A stretch of 64,000 nucleotides of DNA from Deltaproteobacteria bacterium (GTDB taxonomy: Bacteria; Myxococcota; XYA12-FULL-58-9; JAFGEK01), in the NCBI GenBank assembly GCA_016931625.1, contig JAFGEK010000020.1:39110-103109 (forward strand). The letters run 5' to 3'. Numbering within the stretch: position 1 is the stretch's first letter; the number at the start of each line of letters is the position of its first letter. A program made the translations under genes and the position numbers. The notes beneath the pieces were generated by a model that saw only the letters and a program-made list of their open reading frames with translations, was not told where the DNA came from and did no database searches. Positions 37,192 to 62,547 of this stretch are shown piece by piece.

Positions 37192-39468
37192 ATGATTGAA
37201 ACAGCCAAACAATTATTGGCTTATAATTTGCCTGAAAATATTTCATTTTCTTCAAACGAAGACCAAACTAAAATTATTAATGATAATAAAAAGAAATTAA
37301 CTCTTCCTAAAAAAAGAATTGGTTTTACTTTTGATTCATCTGTAGCTGTAGCACCAGAAGCTACTAAATCATTAGTAAAATTTTATCAAGGTATCGATAG
37401 TAATCGCGCGCATAGCGATAAAGTAACACCGGCTATTTCAGATAAAAATAAAAAGTTATACCTACCATCAAAAAGTACTTGTTTGTTTTCTGATTCATCA
37501 TTAACTATGCCATCTTCATTAAGTGTATCTTCAACACAACTGGGATTTAATCTTGTTAGTAAAAATGGCATCATCGGGAACAACATTTATTATAAAAATA
37601 TTGAGGATGTTATTGATGCGTTAAATAAAGCGAAAATGGTTCAGGATGCGAGTGCAGAAAAAATAATAAGGCAACAATTTAATGAACTTAAAAAACAATT
37701 GCCACAGTTTCAAAGAATTTTTAATGAATTACAAATCACAGAATCACATTTGTTGAAATGGTTAGCAACAGGAAGCATTCCGAACAATGTGATAGAGGTT
37801 TATATAAGGCATCAGCAGGCTGACAATAAATCAAAATATCTAGAAAAGAAAATAGCAAACAGTATTTACTTGTTACTTAAATATGGTGAGTATGTTGCCC
37901 ATTTTCGCGGCGAGATAGAAGCTGAAACAGGAGAAAATCCGCTGCTGCTTACTATGCAGGCTATGCAAACCAAATTTTGGCAAAAAGAACAAAATATTGT
38001 TGTAAGTAATGCTACAAATATTTTTTATAATCTTAAGGATAATAGATTTAAATTAGCGATGGCCGAGCATAGTCTTGATAGTTTAAACGTAAAGTTAAAC
38101 TATCAAGTCTTAAATCTATCCCCAAATGATGAAGAAATCATCAAGACACAAAAAATGGTCGAGCGTGCTAAAATAGCAATTAATAATTATAGCGATCTTA
38201 TTGCCAATCAAGAGAAAGCCGCACGTTCAGTTTTAACAAGTTTGTATCAGCGGCATGCCAAACGAGTTACCCAAAAAACACATAATAATGATCCTGAGCG
38301 CCTTAATGCTGGTCGTTATGCAGCAGCGAATGCTGTAGTGGAAGCAGATGTTAAACATAAAATTGATGCAACTGATATTGGCAATGAAATCAAAAGCGCT
38401 AAACAAATTGAGTTATTACTAATAAATATAAGAACCACACTACATTGGGTCCAAGAGACAATTTCAATCAACACATATTGGACAGAAGACAGCATTACTC
38501 GTGCTGATATAATAGAAGCTTTAGAAAAGATTAGACCACAACTGCAATCAATTCATGAGATACTGCGCAATGAAAAAGTAAATGAAATAAATGATAATAC
38601 CATCGTCGAAATAGCAAAATACTATGCAACGGCAGTTTTTTGTTTAAGTGATGCCTATGAAGCAGAGGCCGATGATCTTGAACAACAATGTCAAGTATCT
38701 GCAACCCCACAAGTGGGAGTAAGATTAGCTCTTCTCTGCCACAATGCTGCGATGTTATCACTCGAGATTGCTGAAATAGAACTTTTGGCGGCAGATGCGC
38801 GCGTCTCTATGGAAGTTGGCAAGAAAACCTTTGATGAGCAAGACGAGCAAAAACTAAATCTCCATGATTTTGTTAATTACCTCGAAGAACGAGCAGCAGA
38901 TAAGGATACCCAACTAAAAGCTTATCAAGAAACCTTAAAAAAACTTAACTCTTTACCAATATCTACCTTAGGAGCAACCTATCCAACTCAAATTTATAGT
39001 ATCGTTGGTCGTAATGAGTTGCAAATACTCTATACTACTTGGAGGTTACATAACTCCCAAAAAGAATACGACGCAATAATTAGTCAACGAGATGAGTTTG
39101 CTGCACGTCTTACCGCAGGAGCTTGGCCTGAATATCAAAAACAAAAGCTAAAACTGCAACTCTCCAAAACAGAAAAACAAAAGACTAAAGAAAATTTACA
39201 AATCAAAATTAAAATACTGGATAAAAAACGTAAGGTAGAAATTGCTCAAGAACAAAGCAACAAAGAGACGCAAAACTTTCTTGATTCTCGTATGACTGAC
39301 GTTATCATTGGCGAAGAATTTTTGATTCCGTTTAATAAAGCAAATCCGTTAATAAATCTTCAAAGTGCTGGTGTCGGCGATATCTACATAAAAGCATTTG
39401 ACGCATCTAAAAGAAATTCCATTATATGGCATCAACGTGAAATAAATGCGTTGTTAATATATTGGTAA
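37192..39468 (+). CDS. Large hypothetical protein (758 aa). Lys/Glu/Gln/Asn-rich, predicted helical or coiled-coil, no signal peptide, no recognisable domain.
   Basis: A long ORF in a low-GC island. ATG at 37192 with AGGAG 9 nt upstream (the ORF-track start at 37144 is probably too early). No catalytic motifs found by eye (no HExxH, GxSxG or CxxC). Confidence 0.6.
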   Translation: MIETAKQLLAYNLPENISFSSNEDQTKIINDNKKKLTLPKKRIGFTFDSSVAVAPEATKSLVKFYQGIDSNRAHSDKVTPAISDKNKKLYLPSKSTCLFSDSSLTMPSSLSVSSTQLGFNLVSKNGIIGNNIYYKNIEDVIDALNKAKMVQDASAEKIIRQQFNELKKQLPQFQRIFNELQITESHLLKWLATGSIPNNVIEVYIRHQQADNKSKYLEKKIANSIYLLLKYGEYVAHFRGEIEAETGENPLLLTMQAMQTKFWQKEQNIVVSNATNIFYNLKDNRFKLAMAEHSLDSLNVKLNYQVLNLSPNDEEIIKTQKMVERAKIAINNYSDLIANQEKAARSVLTSLYQRHAKRVTQKTHNNDPERLNAGRYAAANAVVEADVKHKIDATDIGNEIKSAKQIELLLINIRTTLHWVQETISINTYWTEDSITRADIIEALEKIRPQLQSIHEILRNEKVNEINDNTIVEIAKYYATAVFCLSDAYEAEADDLEQQCQVSATPQVGVRLALLCHNAAMLSLEIAEIELLAADARVSMEVGKKTFDEQDEQKLNLHDFVNYLEERAADKDTQLKAYQETLKKLNSLPISTLGATYPTQIYSIVGRNELQILYTTWRLHNSQKEYDAIISQRDEFAARLTAGAWPEYQKQKLKLQLSKTEKQKTKENLQIKIKILDKKRKVEIAQEQSNKETQNFLDSRMTDVIIGEEFLIPFNKANPLINLQSAGVGDIYIKAFDASKRNSIIWHQREINALLIYW

Positions 39469-54187: not shown

Positions 54188-55987
54188 ATGGAGCGAGTTG
54201 AGGGTGAAGCTAAAACCAGACGATACCCACGTGTACCATTTCACACTCATGTCGATGTAAGCGGTAATTCATTAAACATTGCTGGGTTTACTAGCAATAT
54301 TAGCCGTGATGGTTTGGCTTTTAGTCTACCGCTTAAAGATTTGGGCGAAAAAGCTGGTAGATTGCCGGTAGGTACTGAATTAGCTCTGCGTTTGCATCTT
54401 CCAACTCTTCAGGCTCCATTGATCATTAAATGTCAAGTAGCTTGGACTGGCCAGCCTGCCAGAGATTCTGCAGGACGACTTGCGGTTCGTATGGGAGTAC
54501 ATTTTTGTTCCGAACAACCCAGTGTCGACCAAGCTGTTGTCGAGCTTATGGCCAGTTTTCGTCATCGTATAGCTATTATTGATTTTCCTGTAATTGAAAA
54601 AATTAAAGAGACATTAGATGATTTATATCCAATCGAAGAGATAAAGGACCTTGAGACATTAAATACTTCGATGTCTCGCAGTGAAGTCGGATTAATTGTT
54701 ATTGGCAACGGTAAAGGAGATGATGTTTTAATTAAAACGGTTATTGAAATTTTACGGTACACGCAAGTAGAAATTCAACCACCATTATTAGTATGTGTGC
54801 CCGAAGATTCGAAAGCTTTTTCTCAGCTTCCCCCTGATAAATTTAATGTTTTATTTGCCCGCTGGCCAATTAGTGCCTTAGAACTGCGTGCTTTGGCAGT
54901 CAGAAGTGTTGAAAGCCATGCTGTAGCTTTAGAAAATGCCAGATTAAGGTTTGAACTAGAAGGTATGGTTGAACGGCTACAACGTGAAAACCAATTTTTC
55001 AGAGGTAAATTTGTCACCGGCTCTCGTTTTGAAGGAATAATTGGTGATAGTGCACCAATGCGACGCTTATATGAAACTGTTGAACGGGTAGCAGCTTCGG
55101 ACGCGAATGCTATTATTTTAGGTGAAACAGGGACAGGCAAAGAGCTAATCGCTCGTGCTTTATTTTTGCATAGTCGTCGTGCAGATAAACCATTTCTTGC
55201 GCAAAACTGTGCTGCACTTTCAGAATCTTTGCTGGATAGCGAATTATTTGGTCATTGTCGTGGCGCTTTTACCGGCGCGGTTTTGGATCACGCTGGTTTA
55301 TTTGAAGCTGCTGATGGCGGTACCATTTTTTTAGATGAAGTTGCTGAGATGAGTCAGACTATGCAAGCAAAGCTTTTGCGCGTATTACAAAATAAGGAGC
55401 TTCGTCGCATAGGTGAAACTAAAATTCGTCAAATTGATGTACGGGTAATATGTGCAACTCATCGTAATCTTGAGACGATGATTGCCGATGGCAGATTTCG
55501 GGCTGATTTATATTATCGCATTGCGGTTATTTCATTACACATACCACCATTACGTGAACGTCGTGATGATATTCTTGCCTTAGCTACACACTTTTTGGCG
55601 CATTTTGCGGCAGAAAATGGTACCGAGCCCGTAATGGTATCGGCTGAAGCAATGAGATTGTTAGAAGCATATTCATGGAAAGGTAATGTGCGTGAATTGC
55701 AGCACTCTATGGAAAAGCTTGCCATGTTGACTCCGAAAGGAGCACGAATTACTGCTGAAAGTGTTGCTGATATTTTAGGGCGCGAAAAATTAAGCTCGCA
55801 ACAGATAGAAGATCTACAAGAAACCATGCCTTTAGACGCAGCACTTGAAGATTGTGAAAAAAGACTTATCGAAAGAGCCCTGCGTATCAACCAAGGGGTT
55901 ATTGCTAAAGCAGCACGTACTCTTGGAGTAAATCGCAGTACCTTATCAAAGCGTTGCCGACGTTTAGGAATTCAAGCAACTGAATGA
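54188..55987 (+). CDS. Sigma-54-dependent transcriptional activator with an N-terminal PilZ domain (PilZ / linker / AAA+ sigma54-interaction domain / Fis-type HTH)
   Basis: PilZ motifs RRYPR (RxxxR) and NISRDGLAF ([DN]xSxxG). AAA+ motifs GETGTGKELIARALF (Walker A), GAFTGA (the sigma54-contact loop), FLDEV (Walker B). C-terminal HTH VIAKAARTLGVNRSTLSKRCRRLGI. Confidence 0.85.
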   Translation: MERVEGEAKTRRYPRVPFHTHVDVSGNSLNIAGFTSNISRDGLAFSLPLKDLGEKAGRLPVGTELALRLHLPTLQAPLIIKCQVAWTGQPARDSAGRLAVRMGVHFCSEQPSVDQAVVELMASFRHRIAIIDFPVIEKIKETLDDLYPIEEIKDLETLNTSMSRSEVGLIVIGNGKGDDVLIKTVIEILRYTQVEIQPPLLVCVPEDSKAFSQLPPDKFNVLFARWPISALELRALAVRSVESHAVALENARLRFELEGMVERLQRENQFFRGKFVTGSRFEGIIGDSAPMRRLYETVERVAASDANAIILGETGTGKELIARALFLHSRRADKPFLAQNCAALSESLLDSELFGHCRGAFTGAVLDHAGLFEAADGGTIFLDEVAEMSQTMQAKLLRVLQNKELRRIGETKIRQIDVRVICATHRNLETMIADGRFRADLYYRIAVISLHIPPLRERRDDILALATHFLAHFAAENGTEPVMVSAEAMRLLEAYSWKGNVRELQHSMEKLAMLTPKGARITAESVADILGREKLSSQQIEDLQETMPLDAALEDCEKRLIERALRINQGVIAKAARTLGVNRSTLSKRCRRLGIQATE

Positions 55988-55999
55988 ACGTAAAGTAAA

Positions 56000-56027
56000 G
56001 TAGGGGCTAATAATTATTAGCCCCTAC
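56000..56027. terminator. Perfect 28-nt palindrome GTAGGGGCTAATAATTATTAGCCCCTAC, a bidirectional intrinsic terminator between convergent genes
   Basis: A 12-bp GC-containing stem around an AATT centre, with A/T-rich flanks on both sides. It sits between the activator stop (55987) and the SCPU gene stop (56027). Confidence 0.6.
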
Positions 56028-56563
56028 TACCATTGTACAGTTGCTACAATAGTATCGAGATAGTTACCAGCCGGTATGTCTTGGCCTGGTGGTATTCGCC
56101 CATAAATAGTTACAGTTACATTTGAGTTTTTTGGCGGTATAGTTTGGTAATAAGTAGTACCTTCTGTACCATCTCCCCATATATTACTATGTGCTGCGTC
56201 TAAATAGAGATTGTATTGTTGCACATAAGCACCACTTTGCATTTGGCGCGGATTATAGCTGGTAGCACTACCACGGCTAAGGGTTATTAATACGGGATCT
56301 CCATTTACTTGACGACAACGATAAGTGATGCTGCCGGTTGAATCAGTTGGAGTGGCGTTAAAAACATCGTAGGTGCCAAAATTAATGCCTACAGTACCTC
56401 GAATATTACATTTTATCGCCAAGGCAGTATTAGATGCTGCAAACAAAAGAAATACACCAAAAACAAATGCAATAAGTGGTGTTCTTCTTTTAAACCAACC
56501 ATTTGTTTTTTGCCTTGCCTGTTTAAAAATGAGGCGCGGTTGAAAACGGTGGCATATATGCAT
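56027..56563 (-). CDS. Spore-coat-protein-U (SCPU) domain pilus subunit (Csu-type, distal or tip-associated)
   Basis: A signal-peptide-like segment, then the SCPU pattern ...YNLYLDAAHSNIWGDG...GRIPPGQDIPAGNYLDTIVATVQW. Confidence 0.7.
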   Translation of the reverse strand: MHICHRFQPRLIFKQARQKTNGWFKRRTPLIAFVFGVFLLFAASNTALAIKCNIRGTVGINFGTYDVFNATPTDSTGSITYRCRQVNGDPVLITLSRGSATSYNPRQMQSGAYVQQYNLYLDAAHSNIWGDGTEGTTYYQTIPPKNSNVTVTIYGRIPPGQDIPAGNYLDTIVATVQW

Positions 56564-56743
56564 ACATATACTCCAAAAACGATGTCTCGCAATGTTCGTT
56601 TTTACTTAGTTAGTAAAATCAAACAACCGCAATCACATAATTATATTGTATCGTGTTATTTAACATAAGGCATGTTATATACGCAAAAATAGATAACTAA
56701 ATGTTTTAAATAGGAAAGCTAAAATTATATTATTTGTACAGTG

Positions 56744-57283
56744 TTACCATTGTAATGTTGCAACGATGGTATCGTGGTAATTACCTGCTGGTATATCTTG
56801 CCCTGGGGGTATACGTCCATAAATAGTAACAGTTTCGGTTCTGAAATTAGGCGGGACAGTTTGAAAATACGAACTACCTCCTGAACCATCACCCCATATG
56901 ATGGTGCGGGATGCATCGAGATAAAGATTATATTGTAAGGTGAATCCACCATTTTGCATTCGTCTAGGAGTATAACTTGCGGCACCACCACGACTGAGGG
57001 ATAATCTTACTGAAGCGCCTCCGACAAAAAAGCAGAAATAGCTGAAACTGCCAGTCGAATCAGTGGGAGTACTATTAAATACATCATAAGCCCCAAAATT
57101 TATTCCCGTCGATTGGGTAATAAAACAATAAATCGCATGTGCATTGGTAGGGGCAAATAGTAAAAAAAGTAAGATAAACACTGATAGAATATTAAATCTA
57201 CTTAATGTCTTTTTATCATTATAGCTGATAGGTCGGGGTTTAACGACCTTATCAAATTTTTTTATTCCGAAATGGCAATACAT
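56744..57283 (-). CDS. SCPU-domain pilus subunit (paralog of 56027)
   Basis: ...YNLYLDASRTIIWGDG...GRIPPGQDIPAGNYHDTIVATLQW, the same C-terminal pattern. Overlaps the usher gene by 22 nt. Confidence 0.7.
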   Translation of the reverse strand: MYCHFGIKKFDKVVKPRPISYNDKKTLSRFNILSVFILLFLLFAPTNAHAIYCFITQSTGINFGAYDVFNSTPTDSTGSFSYFCFFVGGASVRLSLSRGGAASYTPRRMQNGGFTLQYNLYLDASRTIIWGDGSGGSSYFQTVPPNFRTETVTIYGRIPPGQDIPAGNYHDTIVATLQW

Positions 57284-59646
57284 TTAACTACTCCCAAGTC
57301 GATAAATTGTTCGTCTTTTTGTGGTACAACTAAAGCAAAAATGCAGTTTGTACCGCTATAATATATTGTAGCCTGATAAGTTCCTGAGCGCAGGTTTTCA
57401 AAATAAAATTCAGCATTCGCGCCAAGAGGTGATGTCATAATGCCATTGTTGGTCGCGATGGTTAAATCTCCATAATTTGGTTGAAGTATTTCGTCATCCT
57501 TGATGAGAATGATTTTGCCGATAATAGCTTGCATTTTACGCATCTTTGGCTCTACTAATGCTCCACCTCTATATGGTGGAGCAACTATTACTTCCGATTG
57601 CTCAATTTCATAATTAAAAGGAACATCAGCATCACTTATACTTATGCGATTGCCATAATATGGTAATAAATTGGGCACTAAAAATTCTCCACTAGCATCA
57701 GTTTGACCAATAATTTGATTGTCTAGTAATACGGAGACATCGGGTGTTTTTGGTAAACGTACTAATGCAAAACTATTACTTATTGGTCTGCTGGCTTTAA
57801 GCGACCCGTCAAGCCAAACTAAAGAACCAGTTGCACTTACACTGCCGGTGTTCTGTGCACCATACTCATTATGGATACCATCATAGCTAGCTTCATAGCG
57901 TCCATAATCCCATTGATACTGCATTAACGCCCGTGCGGCACCACCACCAGCGTTAAATGTTTGTAATTCAGAGCGGTAACCGATGCCTTCATTAGGAGGT
58001 AAGGGTTTTTGCATTTGAAAAGTTGTAGTGGCATTTGCACCAGTTTGATGTGATACCGCGGCGCTAGTCGATTGCGGCATTGTGTAAGTCAAGCCTATAA
58101 AAGCAGAGGTAGTAGTTGAATTATCTTCAATTGTTAAATCTGTTGTTAAAAAGAAACTTAACGCACCAAGCTGCCAATTAGTATTAACCGAAAATTGATG
58201 TGTGGCGGTATGGTTCTGATGCACACCTAAATCATAATGTAGTGACAAACCTACACCAAAAGGTAATGGTAATGAAATAAAAGCTGCAGCATCGATAGGT
58301 AATTTTTCAATTTCAGTCGATGAATTAAGGCTGGTGTAAGCATTGTTTTGCACTTGTAGCGAGCCGCCAAAACTAAGATATCGACTAGAGTTAGTATAGA
58401 TTAACGCTCCGGCAGAACCAGTGCGGTTTTCACTAAAACTCATGGCGCCTGCAAGCTCTAATTCACCAATAGGTAAACCCAAGCTAATGGTAGGACCAAA
58501 ATTAGTTTGCCATGGTGTGGCATCAGTGCGACCACCAACCGTCAACCAATCATTAACACCTGTGCGGTAATATCCAAGAACTACAGCTTTACCATAGTCA
58601 AAACTTTTTTGGGTGTTTTCGCGTAGGACCCCTAGATTGACCGAAAATTCCGTAATATCTGGCGATAATAAAGATGCTGCAAAATAATAAGGCGAAATTA
58701 TTTCACGACTTTCGCCAAAAGCATCACGCATAATTACTTCTACCGAACCTCGACCTACTGGTGTTGGAATATTTTCAATATTAAAAGGTCCTGGCGGCAA
58801 TTGTTCACGCCGCAGAAATATCCCATTACGATAAATTTCAATAGTTGCTGGGGTTAATACTGAACCTGAAATACCATGTCCTGGTTGCCGTAAAAAATAG
58901 GGGTCAAGAGCAAAATTACGTGCAACGCTAATACCCGCAAATTGTGCGCTACTACCTAAAAGTCCGGTACTAGCTTGCGCGTCACCAAGAGTCCAGCGCG
59001 TTAGATTTTCTGTGTCATCATAAACAAAATAACTTGGTCCGCGAACAAATTCACCTAAAGTAGTACGTCTGACGCTGTTATAAAGTAGTCCCCAAGGTGA
59101 ATTAAATGCCAACTCAGAAAACCCACTAAAATCGGTACTATTGCTCCAATCAATAGCATAATTTAATAATAGACTGTTATCACGTGGATATTGGATATCC
59201 TTGGGTCGATTAGACCTCATGCTAATAGTCGTCGGTGCAAAAAAATCAGGGGCAGCAGTTAAGCTTAAACTAAGTGTTTGCTCGTCAAAGGTATAAGTTA
59301 TTTTTGGCGCTAACGATTTTAACAACACCATGTCTTCGCCATAAAAAATATTATAAGTACCTTTGGTTTCTTTAATGCCTGCAGCAAGTAAGTCATTAAC
59401 TCGCAAATAAATATCCTTATTAAGTAAATAGATTAACACTTCACCCTTGGGTACTGAATTTACCGACATTGGTACTACTATGGGTAAGGGTAACATAGTG
59501 GGATCTTCAGGTAGATCAGAGATGGCTAATGCTGGCAGACTAATAAAGAAGATAAATATAAATACAGTTCGTTGATGCCGCGCCAAGAGTCGGAATATAA
59601 AATAAAAATAACGTGCTAAAGCACCTATTTTAAGGCCCACATACAT
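57262..59646 (-). CDS. Fimbrial outer-membrane usher protein
   Basis: About 790 aa, signal peptide, large beta-barrel. Positioned between the chaperone and subunit genes as in csuD/fimD-type systems. Confidence 0.75.
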   Translation of the reverse strand: MYVGLKIGALARYFYFIFRLLARHQRTVFIFIFFISLPALAISDLPEDPTMLPLPIVVPMSVNSVPKGEVLIYLLNKDIYLRVNDLLAAGIKETKGTYNIFYGEDMVLLKSLAPKITYTFDEQTLSLSLTAAPDFFAPTTISMRSNRPKDIQYPRDNSLLLNYAIDWSNSTDFSGFSELAFNSPWGLLYNSVRRTTLGEFVRGPSYFVYDDTENLTRWTLGDAQASTGLLGSSAQFAGISVARNFALDPYFLRQPGHGISGSVLTPATIEIYRNGIFLRREQLPPGPFNIENIPTPVGRGSVEVIMRDAFGESREIISPYYFAASLLSPDITEFSVNLGVLRENTQKSFDYGKAVVLGYYRTGVNDWLTVGGRTDATPWQTNFGPTISLGLPIGELELAGAMSFSENRTGSAGALIYTNSSRYLSFGGSLQVQNNAYTSLNSSTEIEKLPIDAAAFISLPLPFGVGLSLHYDLGVHQNHTATHQFSVNTNWQLGALSFFLTTDLTIEDNSTTTSAFIGLTYTMPQSTSAAVSHQTGANATTTFQMQKPLPPNEGIGYRSELQTFNAGGGAARALMQYQWDYGRYEASYDGIHNEYGAQNTGSVSATGSLVWLDGSLKASRPISNSFALVRLPKTPDVSVLLDNQIIGQTDASGEFLVPNLLPYYGNRISISDADVPFNYEIEQSEVIVAPPYRGGALVEPKMRKMQAIIGKIILIKDDEILQPNYGDLTIATNNGIMTSPLGANAEFYFENLRSGTYQATIYYSGTNCIFALVVPQKDEQFIDLGVVKCIAISE

Positions 59647-60400
59647 TTACTGGGAGATCCATGCTCTTGGTCACTGTAGTAAAATCGGTTTCAATGTTTA
59701 AATTTAATGCTTTGCTATTTTTACATTCATCTGCAGTTAATTCCACATTGTAGATTCTTTGGCCGCCTGAAAGGACATACCAACCATCAAAGCTTTGCTC
59801 CTTTATTATGGAGCCTTTGGTATTAGTGATCGAGTAATTAATTTTACGTAAAGAAAAATGCACATTACCTGTATTTAATATGGCAAAACTCACCTGGTGT
59901 TTAGCTAGCACTATTTTTTCGATACTGACACTATGTTTAGCGGTGCCCTGATGAATAAAAATTGGGATACCCAGCTCGGTTAATATTCTTAACTGATTAC
60001 CTTCAGCAGTATTTTTGTCTTTATTATCTGGCGGTAGTTCAGTGACAAATATGCGATATGATTTTTCTATATCACTAGCTTTCACTCTTGTACCCACACG
60101 GATATTTCTTTTCTCTTTAGGTTGAAGCATTAATAAGGTTGGAAAGAAAACAATATCCTGTGTAGGTTTTAATACCATTTCACCATTGTTTTTCTGATCC
60201 CAAGAAAACCCACGTACCTGCAAACGCAGGGTTTCAGCACTATCATTAGTTATCATTAATAAAGTGCTTGAGGTATCTGACGATAGTGTGACTTGCACCG
60301 GTTTGACACTAAATGTGCTTGCAAGTGCAGGGTTAGTTATAAGGAGTAAGTAAGCGGTCAGGATGGGGTAGAGGCAGCGCATGCATAGATTGTAAAGCAA
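59630..60400 (-). CDS. Periplasmic pilus chaperone (PapD/CsuC-like)
   Basis: About 250 aa with a signal peptide. The N-terminal domain FSVKPVQVTLSSD...LLMITNDSAETLRLQVRGFSW is a CsuC/PapD-like beta-sandwich pattern. Overlaps the usher start. Confidence 0.7.
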   Translation of the reverse strand: MLYNLCMRCLYPILTAYLLLITNPALASTFSVKPVQVTLSSDTSSTLLMITNDSAETLRLQVRGFSWDQKNNGEMVLKPTQDIVFFPTLLMLQPKEKRNIRVGTRVKASDIEKSYRIFVTELPPDNKDKNTAEGNQLRILTELGIPIFIHQGTAKHSVSIEKIVLAKHQVSFAILNTGNVHFSLRKINYSITNTKGSIIKEQSFDGWYVLSGGQRIYNVELTADECKNSKALNLNIETDFTTVTKSMDLPVNVCGP

Positions 60401-60427
60401 GGTGCCTTGAGGGTCTAATTATTGTTC

Positions 60428-60931
60428 TTAGAAGTTTACAGTAGCTACTACGGTATCATTGTATGAGCCGGCTGGTACATCTTGACCGGCGCTAACGCGA
60501 CCGTAAACCGTAAAGGGGCGAGGGGCGCTACTGGGTGCTGGAGCTGGAGTTAGCAAATCAGGAGCCGCATCACCCCATGAAGTCGTTCTGCCTGCATCTT
60601 GGTAAAGGTCATATTCTAAATAACCAGTGCCACCGTCATTCATCCGTCGTTGGGTACCAGAAGCATTGACGCCAAGACCAAGACCTATTGTTGTCGTTGC
60701 TCCTTGGGTACAGGTCACAGTCACAGTGCCAGTTGCATCTAGGTCGACGGCCGCGTTAGCGACGATAGGATCGTAGGTGCCAAATGCCAGCGCTGCGGTG
60801 GTGATACTGCAATTATTAACTACTACAGCGCTAACATCGAGGTTGGCAGTAGCAGTAGCAGCCAAAGCTGACGAAGAAATCGCAGTTAAAAAAGCGATGG
60901 TTACTAAACTAATTTTGAATGATTTTGCCAT
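60428..60931 (-). CDS. SCPU-domain major pilin (CsuA/B-like)
   Basis: ATG at 60929-60931 with GGAG upstream, and signal peptide MAKSFKISLVTIAFLTAISSSALA. ...YDLYQDAGRTTSWGDA...GRVSAGQDVPAGSYNDTVVATVNF. The ORF-track start at 61027 would swallow the predicted sigma-54 promoter. Confidence 0.75.
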   Translation of the reverse strand: MAKSFKISLVTIAFLTAISSSALAATATANLDVSAVVVNNCSITTAALAFGTYDPIVANAAVDLDATGTVTVTCTQGATTTIGLGLGVNASGTQRRMNDGGTGYLEYDLYQDAGRTTSWGDAAPDLLTPAPAPSSAPRPFTVYGRVSAGQDVPAGSYNDTVVATVNF

Positions 60932-60989
60932 TTCCGTGCTCCAGTCTAACGCATCCGCAATGCGTGTGTTTTCTTGGATAAATAGTAGA

Positions 60990-61004
60990 GCATTTTTGGT
61001 GCCA
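60990..61004 (-). promoter_or_regulatory. Candidate sigma-54 (-24/-12) promoter. The minus strand reads TGGCACcaaaaATGCT, driving the pilin-chaperone-usher operon.
   Basis: GG-N10-GC spacing is exact. The -24 TGGCAC is perfect and the -12 ATGC has one mismatch to TTGC. It lies about 58 nt upstream of the pilin ATG. Confidence 0.55.
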
Positions 61005-61264
61005 ACTATTAAAATGGTGTTTGGCACTTTTTACATACGAAAAAGTATAATAAAAACAAGGTATTATAATATTGCAGGTGGTAGCTATGGTTACATTAAC
61101 TATGCATATTTTACATAGTTGCGTGTCGATATTCACGCATTTTTAAGGTATTTAAGCAAAATATTCATGCTGATATTATACACCGACATACATGACATGC
61201 TTAATAATTATTCTAAATGTGTTGAATGCACGGAGATGTTTAATAATTTTAGAGAATGGATGGA

Positions 61265-61681
61265 TTAGAAATTCAAAGTAGTGATTACTGTCGAAGCTGG
61301 GGTATTCGAAGCTAGAAGATAATCAGTATCGGTTGAAGTACTAGCTAACATAACGCGTGAGACGTGGATTGCATTTTGGTCAGGCGATGTATTGGAATTG
61401 AGTTTAATGTGCGATGACGTAACTTTGTTTATATCCGTACGTGCGCTAGTAAGCGGATGTATGGTTCCTCTAGTGCATCTGACGGTAATGTTACCTTCGA
61501 GTGTGTCGTTAATGGCTGACGCAGAATTTGCAATTGCACAAGTTGGCATCACTTTAACGCTGACAGTAAGTCTATCACTCTTAGCGGCAAAAACCGTCTG
61601 GCTGCTGAAAAAAACTGAAAATGTAACAAGTAACCAACGCATACTTATTGTTATAAGCAAGGGCAATGCCAAGTTAGGCAA
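61265..61681 (-). CDS. Divergent SCPU-like pilus subunit (minor pilin)
   Basis: Signal peptide (MRWLLVTFSVFFSSQTVFAA), two Cys, and the C-terminal beta-strand ...TVITTLNF, which resembles the SCPU ending. First gene of the cluster. Confidence 0.5.
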   Translation of the reverse strand: MPNLALPLLITISMRWLLVTFSVFFSSQTVFAAKSDRLTVSVKVMPTCAIANSASAINDTLEGNITVRCTRGTIHPLTSARTDINKVTSSHIKLNSNTSPDQNAIHVSRVMLASTSTDTDYLLASNTPASTVITTLNF

Positions 61682-61989
61682 TATCTATAACTAGTTAATA
61701 ATAATAGACTATTAACACAGCATAGGTTATTGCTATGGCTTATCTATGGGGATGCCCTAGGACTCTGGGTCTTTTCTACTTGTAGGTAAATATCTTACTC
61801 TTTACAATGCAGTATTTGTCTATCCAGTATAACTCCTTGATTTGCTAATAATTACCCAAAGTTATAAACAATACTCGATCGCCTTTAAAAAAACTGTTTT
61901 AGAACTTTTGCAGAATGATTTGACGCCTGACTGTGATTATGAAATACAGTTTGCTCTTTTTGGACCAACAAAAACCCAAAGGAGAAGGT

Positions 61990-62547
61990 ATGAGGTATAT
62001 AGATCTTTCGCGTTGTCTGCTCGTAGCGTTTTTTGGTTTAGCGATCGCTGTGGGTCAGCCCGGTTGCGCAACTACCAAAGCTGGTGGTGATGCTCAAGCT
62101 AGTGCTGAAGGTGGCGATGCTGAAGAACCAAACCCCCTCGGTGAAAATCTGGCACTTAACAAGCCAGCAGTCAGTTCTTCTGACGAAAAAGCCGAAATGG
62201 CACCAAAATATGCGGTTGATGGTGATCTCAGCACTCGTTGGGGTTCAAACTTCTTTACTGATCCTGACCCAACAGTTGGCTGGATTTATATAGATTTAGG
62301 CGAAGTCAAGACTATCGGTACCGTAGTTATTACCTGGGAAGCCGCTTATGGTCTTGAGTATCAAATTCTCGTTTCTGACGATGCCAAAGAATGGAAAGTC
62401 GCTTATCACGAGAAAGATGGTCACGTAGGCCGTTCAGTACACAAAATCGACCCTCCAGTTCAGGGTCATTATGTTAAACTCCTTGGTATCAAACGTGGTA
62501 CTGCCTATGGCTATTCACCATGGGAAATCGAAGTATACGAGAAATAA
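61990..62547 (+). CDS. Lipoprotein with an F5/8 type C (discoidin) domain
   Basis: ATG at 61990 after GGAGAAGG. Lipobox AVGQPGC. ...AVDGDLSTRWGS...WIYIDLGEVKTIGTVVITWEAAYGLEYQILVSDD..W is the discoidin/F5-8C consensus. Confidence 0.7.
   Translation: MRYIDLSRCLLVAFFGLAIAVGQPGCATTKAGGDAQASAEGGDAEEPNPLGENLALNKPAVSSSDEKAEMAPKYAVDGDLSTRWGSNFFTDPDPTVGWIYIDLGEVKTIGTVVITWEAAYGLEYQILVSDDAKEWKVAYHEKDGHVGRSVHKIDPPVQGHYVKLLGIKRGTAYGYSPWEIEVYEK

Follow-up and report, generated by a model that had tools for sequence, protein, structure and literature searches.

The subject of this report is an archaic chaperone-usher pilus cluster on contig JAFGEK010000020.1 of a Deltaproteobacteria bacterium (Myxococcota; assembly GCA_016931625.1), and in particular the region in front of its major pilin gene. 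The stretch analysed, hereafter the window, comprises 64,000 nt (contig positions 39,110 to 103,109), and all coordinates below are counted from its first nucleotide. A -24/-12 element, P2, lies just upstream of the pilin gene and is very probably a genuine sigma-54 promoter. The same cluster carries the gene of a predicted enhancer-binding protein (EBP) with an N-terminal PilZ domain, the PilZ-EBP, for which we see a marginally better than even case as the activator of P2. The proposal that cyclic di-GMP (c-di-GMP) is the activating signal is made with less confidence than this assignment. The account as a whole, in which P2 is functional, the PilZ-EBP acts as the switch and c-di-GMP is sensed, appears to us reasonably probable.

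On the minus strand P2 reads TGGCAC (61004-60999), caaaa (60998-60994) and ATGCT (60993-60989), 16 nt in all. Its GG (61003/61002) and GC (60991/60990) are 10 nt apart, the canonical sigma-54 spacing, and the sole departure from TGGCAC-N5-TTGCW is an A for T at -15, a position weakly conserved in sigma-54 promoters. The element is intergenic, lies on the coding strand and is located 57 nt before the pilin ATG at 60931. An initial annotation of this DNA had reported the same letters, the same GG/GC spacing and the single mismatch in the -12 element; its low coordinate, 60990, should read 60989, and its placement of the promoter upstream of the ATG stands, with a distance that we count as 57 rather than 58 nt. 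Transcription from P2 is predicted to start at about 60978, a position obtained by counting 12 nt downstream from the C of the -12 element (60990). No sigma-70-like promoter reached the scan threshold on the minus strand of the 333-nt intergenic region (61264-60932) that separates the pilin gene from ORF7, the open reading frame (ORF) upstream of it. Likewise, no riboswitch (c-di-GMP-responsive classes included) or other known RNA was matched in the intergenic regions with Rfam at E <= 1.

The ORF track opens the pilin gene at a GTG at 61027. This start would add 32 non-hydrophobic residues and enclose P2 within the coding region; it is unsupported by the N-termini of homologues, and the only record found of the resulting 199-aa form is an automatic gene call in a Logan assembly. 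From the ATG at 60931-60929, which a GGAG Shine-Dalgarno sequence (60942-60939) precedes by 7 nt, the protein opens with a textbook signal peptide of 24 residues, MAKSFKISLVTIAFLTAISSSALA, and the 167-aa product matches NCBI MBN1959617.1 exactly. The conserved mature N-terminus AATATANL is preceded by 24-32 residues in the proteins of a 24-sequence alignment. The 32-residue extension is present in none of them, and the N-termini of the 23 homologues agree with the ATG at 60931. The choice of 60931 over 61027, already made in the initial annotation, is thus backed by both the NCBI entry and the alignment, which indicate that 60931 is the correct start. The correction applies to the ORF track; the NCBI annotation was already right.

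By its sequence match alone, P2 is not significant. The sigma-54 matrix was consensus-weighted and composition-corrected, and was set up here from the published consensus, with reliance on internal controls. In this AT-rich window (39.7% GC), P2 scores 13.3 bits; four sites this good were observed, against about 3.5 expected per random 64 kb. A matrix scan, proposed in the initial annotation as a check on the promoter, therefore gave P2 no clear excess over the window background. The exact pattern TGGCACN5WTGCW occurs once in the window (0.19 expected), and 19 of 100 shuffles contained at least one match. Compared with dinucleotide shuffles of the 250 nt upstream of the pilin gene, P2 reached p = 0.015. 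Since the score alone is at background level, the support for P2 is comparative.

This support comes first from close relatives. In the locus L001 (sample ERZ27271440), whose pilin is 93% identical, TTGGCACC (8/8 positions) and ATGCT (5/5) are unchanged and 3 of the 4 bases between them are changed; an 8-nt indel separates the two sequences just upstream of the P2 elements. In the more distant locus L002 (pilin 69% identical, 63% GC), the sequence GGGCAT-atggc-TTGCT is found about 59 nt before the ATG. An usher-anchored scan of the JGI metagenomes for close relatives confirmed none. Beyond these loci, 79 related loci were collected from reference genomes (Acidobacteriota, Myxococcales, Binatia, Methylomirabilota, Nitrospira, Burkholderiales and others), and the best site was sought within 350 nt upstream of the pilin gene that comes first in each operon. 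On the coding strand, the best site scored at least 12 bits in 25 of 83 loci, compared with 0 of 83 on the opposite strand; at a threshold of at least 10 bits, the numbers were 42 and 4 of the 83 loci, respectively. Thirty-seven of 78 loci beat their own dinucleotide shuffles at p <= 0.05, where 3.9 would be expected. Moreover, sites of at least 12 bits are found in 29% of the pilin upstream regions (78 loci) and in 1.2% of 730 control regions, drawn from the same loci but upstream of other genes (odds ratio 33, Fisher p = 2.5e-18). The 40 best family sites comprise 35 distinct sequences. ATGC is the second commonest -12 element among them (11/40), so the apparent mismatch of P2 is a family norm. 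The distance from site to start codon in the family (median 98 nt, range 32-219) brackets the 57 nt of P2. Because of its placement, strand and conservation, we judge P2 to be far more than a chance match. Thus the claim of the initial annotation that a sigma-54 promoter precedes the major pilin gene is supported both by the footprint against L001 and by the enrichment before orthologues in dozens of genomes.

Several other features of these upstream regions were noted. A C is found at -16 in 28 of the 40 best family sites (loci L007-L085), where the matrix does not favour it and the window has an A; it may reflect a family- or phylum-specific spacer preference beside the -12 element. In six loci from Myxococcales and delta-proteobacterial metagenome-assembled genomes (L011, L013, L014, L015, L017 and L022), four tandem pilin paralogues precede the chaperone gene, whereas the window has one pilin gene plus ORF7. 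The sigma-54 scores upstream of the first paralogue are mostly low in these six loci, the exception being L015 with 12.7 bits, so these loci may use promoters of a different type or at a different place. Two contigs carry outer-membrane usher operons under unexpected labels: L046 is labelled Candidatus Nitrosocosmicus, an archaeon, and L026 Solirubrobacteraceae, an actinobacterium. The 15.4-bit sigma-54 site of L046 is nearly identical to that of the Methylomirabilota contig L048; L046 and L026 are probably mis-binned.

Within the predicted 5' untranslated region (5' UTR) of the pilin gene, an 18-nt block, CAAGAAAACACACGCATT (60949-60973, minus strand), is identical in the window and in L001. 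It overlaps a small hairpin, ACGCAT-N5-ATGCGT, and a GC-rich hairpin occupies the same place in L002. The hairpin was not retained as a real structure, its folding z-scores in the window, L001 and L002 (-0.3, -0.05 and -1.3) being indistinguishable from those of shuffles. An exact 18-mer scan with the conserved block returned 29 matches, all of them unrelated chance matches and none associated with pilus genes. A perfect 7-bp inverted repeat, GTGCCAA-N15-TTGGCAC (60999-61027), has the -24 element as one of its arms. It is not kept in L001, was rejected as a functional element and is probably fortuitous.

A second sigma-54-like site, P1, unmentioned in the initial annotation, is the top matrix match of the window. 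P1 is located 15 nt upstream of the ATG of ORF7, where no Shine-Dalgarno sequence is found. If used, it would yield a near-leaderless transcript with a leader of about 3 nt. P1 and P2 are two of the four best sites in 64 kb and stand at both gene starts that head one cluster, a joint placement that is very unlikely to have arisen by chance. They are the only two well-placed sigma-54 sites of the window, and both lie on the coding strand of the pilus cluster. ORF7, which NCBI starts at the ATG used here (MBN1959618.1), has several pilin-like features: a signal peptide, two Cys motifs (LTVSVKVMPTCAI and ITVRCTRGT) and a C-terminal TTLNF. Its identification as an SCPU pilin was not adopted and is left as 'possible', with an hhalign probability of only 28% and no Pfam or NCBIfam match. 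No relative of ORF7 was found in 86 related loci, and the protein may be a divergent SCPU-like, lineage-specific minor subunit. No minus-strand terminator was found between ORF7 and the pilin gene (61264-60932); therefore transcription of the entire operon may start at P1, and P2 would raise the level of the major subunit.

Positions of the promoters, genes, protein domains and repeats discussed in the text. Residue numbers refer to the PilZ-EBP.
Feature	Position	Strand	Evidence or remark
P2, sigma-54 type -24/-12 promoter (predicted)	61004-60989	minus	motif, 13.3 bits; kept in L001; family-wide enrichment
P1, sigma-54-like site TGGCAT-tgccc-TTGCT	61671-61656	minus	top matrix match of the window, 15.7 bits
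Two adjacent dyads, candidate activator-binding sites only	61098-61139		TGCGTG-N8-CACGCA, AACTATG-N9-CATAGTT
ORF7, 125-aa secreted protein, first gene of the cluster	61265-61642	minus	NCBI MBN1959618.1, hypothetical protein
Rejected 32-codon N-terminal extension of the pilin ORF	60932-61027	minus	really 5' UTR and promoter
Major pilin gene, SCPU domain, 167 aa	60428-60931	minus	Pfam SCPU 3.5e-35; NCBI MBN1959617.1
PapD-like periplasmic chaperone	59630-60400	minus	Pfam PapD_N 5.6e-13
Outer-membrane usher	57262-59646	minus	Pfam Usher 4.8e-30
SCPU subunit, minor or tip-like	56744-57283	minus	Pfam SCPU 7.1e-29
SCPU subunit, minor or tip-like, last operon gene	56027-56563	minus	Pfam SCPU 8.8e-31
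Hairpin, 13-bp stem, likely terminator	55999-56028		between convergent operon and activator gene
PilZ-EBP, 599 aa	54188-55987	plus	Pfam, motifs, AlphaFold model, structural matches
PilZ domain	residues 10-119		PF07238 2.2e-11, above gathering score
Pseudo-receiver (predicted)	residues 127-225; long linker helix 230-273 (44 residues)		AlphaFold model
Sigma-54 AAA+ domain	residues 284-450		PF00158 Sigma54_activat 1.6e-68; GAFTGA at 55262-55279
Fis-type helix-turn-helix (HTH)	residues 553-592		PF02954 (HTH_8) 7.8e-11

Since a single operon encodes SCPU subunits, a PapD-like chaperone and an usher, the cluster belongs to the archaic (sigma-clade, Csu/CupE/SCPU-type) chaperone-usher class; some 80 related loci share its gene order. 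Overlaps of 17 nt between the chaperone and usher ORFs (59630-59646) and of 22 nt between the usher and SCPU ORFs (57262-57283) suggest translational coupling in the operon. The hairpin at 55999-56028, located between the stop codons of the last SCPU gene and of the PilZ-EBP gene, probably terminates transcription in both directions.

The PilZ-EBP combines three recognisable domains. The PilZ motifs are intact, with RxxxR as R11-R-Y-P-R15 and NxSxxG as N37-I-S39-R-D-G42. Both are also intact in P0122, an orthologue of 67% identity, and RxxxR is degenerate in several distant PilZ-EBP relatives (RQDR, RHTR). The AAA+ motifs GETGTGKE and FLDEV (Walker A and B) and GAFTGA are readable and conserved in the alignment. 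The 164 residues between the PilZ and AAA+ domains gave no Pfam match, and in particular no Response_reg match even at E = 10. In the AlphaFold model (mean predicted local distance difference test score, pLDDT, of 78), PilZ residues 16-106 form a confident beta-barrel, and residues 127-225 adopt a (beta/alpha)5 fold in which beta3 ends with GLIVIGN, without an acceptor Asp; one long helix follows, and fold and helix together (residues 127-273) correspond to 54566-55006. Because this Asp is absent and no Response_reg match was obtained, residues 127-225 are described as a pseudo-receiver. A phosphorylatable receiver is not required for membership of the bacterial EBP family. The best structural matches, over 410-497 aligned columns, are activators with a receiver (REC), AAA+ and HTH architecture, namely NtrX, NtrC1 in the 'inactive state' (1NY5), NtrC4, LuxO, FleQ and VpsR. 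On this model the PilZ-EBP has the layout of an NtrC-family protein, with a pseudo-receiver in the receiver position and a PilZ sensor added at the N-terminus. Its ancestor, as the fold suggests, was a response regulator in which phosphorylation was lost and a PilZ domain acquired. It was presented in the initial annotation as the only sigma-54 activator in the window, and we likewise found a single GAFTGA motif and a single AAA+ match with tblastn. No GGDEF, EAL or HD-GYP gene and no RpoN-box match is present in the window; the completeness of the EBP implies that rpoN is present in the genome.

The assignment of the PilZ-EBP to P2 is based on the conservation of their linkage. The gene of P0122, the closest relative of the PilZ-EBP, is on contig L086, where it is convergent with an SCPU gene and with a gene fragment for the C-terminal portion of an usher. 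L086 shares its sample (ERZ925050/DRR027589) and its GC content (62-63%) with L002, and the two contigs abut at usher residues 363-366. Joined together, they rebuild the sigma-54 site, pilin, chaperone, usher and SCPU genes followed by the convergent PilZ-EBP gene, with an unrelated gene on the outer flank. The pairing of EBP and pilus operon is therefore kept in the orthologue despite a GC content of 62% versus 40% and a changed flank. The related operon also has the gene of a REC-AAA+-HTH activator beside it or close by in five other lineages, and linked EBPs can therefore be considered a recurring trait of this operon family. This conserved synteny makes the regulatory hypothesis plausible.

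A search for enhancer-like repeats upstream of P2 yielded two adjacent dyads about 130-150 nt upstream of the predicted transcription start, and the number of such repeats is at chance level. The contigs of the close relatives end short of the dyad region, and the L001/L002 comparison covers the promoter side. Among the distant PilZ-EBPs (about 42% identity), those encoded at L088 279-2750 and L091 7662-9872 each adjoin a glycoside hydrolase family 44 (GH44) gene. This neighbourhood may point to another conserved target in that branch of the PilZ-EBPs.

Sigma-54 promoters need an ATP-hydrolysing activator to open and have near-zero basal expression. Expression of the pilus would thus be an on/off decision made by an EBP. 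RNA polymerase carrying sigma-54 would occupy P2, and P1, as a closed complex. In the absence of signal, the pseudo-receiver and the long linker helix would keep the AAA+ domain as an inactive dimer, a step taken from the NtrC1/DctD-type negative-control model. Binding of c-di-GMP to the PilZ domain could then move the pseudo-receiver and linker from an assembly-blocking to an assembly-competent state. The resulting EBP hexamer, bound upstream, would use ATP and its GAFTGA loop to remodel sigma-54 at P2 and probably also at P1. Transcription of the major pilin gene would begin at about 60978, with probable read-through to the chaperone, usher and minor subunit genes as far as the hairpin near 56000. 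High c-di-GMP favours the sessile state, and would therefore be expected to turn on the adhesive pilus.

Three other explanations have to be weighed against this account. It is very unlikely that P2 is a chance motif and that transcription of the pilin gene depends on a sigma-70-type promoter that went unrecognised, or on read-through from a promoter upstream of ORF7. About 3.5 sites of at least 13.3 bits are indeed expected per 64 kb at this composition; the exact pattern occurs in 19% of shuffles, the lack of a terminator after ORF7 leaves room for read-through, and this uncultured lineage may have promoter rules of its own. Two further points count against the preferred account: P1, the second site, would give an unusual near-leaderless mRNA, and rpoN is absent from the window, its presence in the genome being implied through the activator. 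However, a chance match would hardly be expected on the coding strand, in an intergenic region and 57 nt before a start codon. Nor would it account for a footprint against L001 that is specific to the half-sites, for comparable sites in front of orthologous genes across many phyla, when only 1.2% of control genes have one, for a second and stronger site before ORF7, or for an activator gene in the same cluster. Finally, no sigma-70-like match at threshold is available in the 333-nt intergenic region to take the place of P2.

The choice of activator is less secure than the promoter. P2 could be real and yet be activated by another, unlinked EBP, the PilZ-EBP being a neighbour by chance or shared history and controlling other genes; we consider this rather unlikely. 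Several observations weigh on its side and against our preferred assignment. The evidence for linkage between the EBP and the operon comes from two genomes. In the majority of the related pilus loci no EBP is encoded within 10 kb, so that unlinked activators must be common among those of the sigma-54 type; a PilZ-type EBP is found in none of the related loci. Five PilZ-EBPs of 40-45% identity reside in unrelated contexts (GH44, chemotaxis and other genes). Dedicated EBPs are commonly encoded divergently or adjacently, whereas some 7 kb separate P2 from the activator gene, which is convergent. No binding site ties the PilZ-EBP to P2: no enhancer stands out above chance, no k-mer is common to the upstream regions of P1 and P2 when compared with shuffles, and no IHF consensus lies between the dyads and P2. 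Against an unlinked activator, on the other hand, the 67% orthologue retains the pairing although its GC content is very different and its outer flank has changed, the 64 kb hold no further well-placed sigma-54 site at which the PilZ-EBP could act, and linked EBPs accompany this operon family in five other lineages. Alternatively, the PilZ-EBP would activate the operon through a PilZ domain that is insensitive to c-di-GMP and serves as an interaction or structural module, the input coming through the pseudo-receiver or a partner. To this we give a low probability. As far as it is treated in PMC8316039, MXAN_2902, the studied PilZ-EBP of M. xanthus, is predicted to be unable to bind c-di-GMP, and the same source describes PlpA as having conserved motifs yet no c-di-GMP binding in vitro. 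The degenerate RxxxR of several PilZ-EBP relatives and the lack of GGDEF, EAL or HD-GYP genes in the window point in the same direction. They are opposed by the intact RxxxR and [D/N]xSxxG motifs of both the window protein and its pilus-linked orthologue, and by the confident beta-barrel predicted for residues 16-106. We therefore retain the PilZ-EBP as the candidate activator of P2 and c-di-GMP, more tentatively, as its signal.

A broader reading is that the archaic-pilus clade of Acidobacteriota, Myxococcota, Binatia, Methylomirabilota, Nitrospirota and Burkholderiales is transcribed by sigma-54 and that, in the present lineage, the dedicated activator gained a PilZ domain; in its full extent it seems to us possible and somewhat doubtful. 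Archaic chaperone-usher pili such as Csu and CupE drive biofilm formation on abiotic surfaces, and to our knowledge their regulation outside a few pathogens is essentially undescribed. If the proposal is true, a large environmental clade of archaic pili is under strictly activator-dependent sigma-54 control. The PilZ-EBP would then be the first EBP shown with a PilZ receptor linking c-di-GMP directly to sigma-54 open-complex formation, with P2, and possibly P1, as its target. PilZ-EBPs would thereby acquire a concrete target promoter open to experiment, and with promoter, activator and ligand reconstituted in E. coli, the gating of an AAA+ activator by a PilZ domain could be tested directly. 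A specialist would not be astonished, although both the sigma-54 signal across the family and a PilZ-EBP whose target can be named are of use and open to testing. Our literature search on sigma-54 control of chaperone-usher pili, the archaic, SCPU, Csu and CupE types included, returned no relevant report. Sigma-54 has been proposed to govern the cell exterior, in a comparative study that makes no mention of ushers, fimbriae or SCPU (PMC3162934); if P2 and its counterparts are functional, that proposal extends to a pilus class unmentioned there.

The arrangement described here resembles the PilR/PilS-sigma-54-pilA systems of Pseudomonas, Myxococcus and Geobacter, in which a -24/-12 promoter and an NtrC-family EBP also serve the major pilus subunit gene. 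The pilin gene of P. aeruginosa reportedly has a sigma-54 promoter and depends on an EBP. In Geobacter, a -24/-12 promoter precedes the major pilin gene pilA and its activity depends on an NtrC-family EBP (PMC2725144). The subunits are of unrelated pilus classes, however, type IV pilins in those systems and chaperone-usher SCPU subunits in the window, and PilR/PilS has a phosphorylatable receiver in place of the PilZ domain and pseudo-receiver; the cluster (54188-62547) yielded no histidine kinase gene.

Csu and CupE are regulated by two-component systems that do not involve sigma-54 (BfmRS and PprAB, respectively). In composition, the Csu pili of Acinetobacter and the CupE pili of Pseudomonas match the window operon, with SCPU subunits, a PapD-like chaperone, an usher and tip-like subunits (PMC12996565, PMC10721868).

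The logic proposed here for the PilZ-EBP is that of MrkH from Klebsiella pneumoniae, a PilZ activator whose gene adjoins a chaperone-usher operon and which turns on the major-subunit promoter in response to c-di-GMP. MrkH is small, has no AAA+ domain or Fis-type HTH and acts at a sigma-70 promoter. The protein responds to c-di-GMP and is encoded beside the type 3 fimbriae operon mrkABCDF (PMC3161979, PMC3828302), and its PilZ domain is itself described as contacting DNA (PMC5055493). With 599 aa, an AAA+ domain and HTH_8, the window protein is not of the MrkH type and is an analogue in logic only: its PilZ domain would be the sensor module of a sigma-54 AAA+ activator. The pili differ as well, the fimbriae controlled by MrkH being of the classical class and the window pilus of the archaic (SCPU/Csu) class.

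FleQ, VpsR and FlrA bind c-di-GMP on AAA+ or receiver surfaces and have no PilZ domain. They are NtrC-family proteins that control surface and biofilm functions and are directly modulated by c-di-GMP, as is proposed for the window protein, and FleQ and VpsR are among its best structural matches; VpsR works with sigma-70 (PMC6158489). The window protein differs from all three by a dedicated PilZ domain fused at its N-terminus. In architecture it is comparable to MXAN_2902, which also joins a PilZ domain to a sigma-54 activator. In the parts of PMC8316039 that concern it, MXAN_2902 is given a developmental phenotype and no target promoter is named. Unlike MXAN_2902 as portrayed there, the window protein has intact PilZ motifs and an evident candidate target. 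Set beside these systems, the finding is a new combination of known parts and not a new kind of system.

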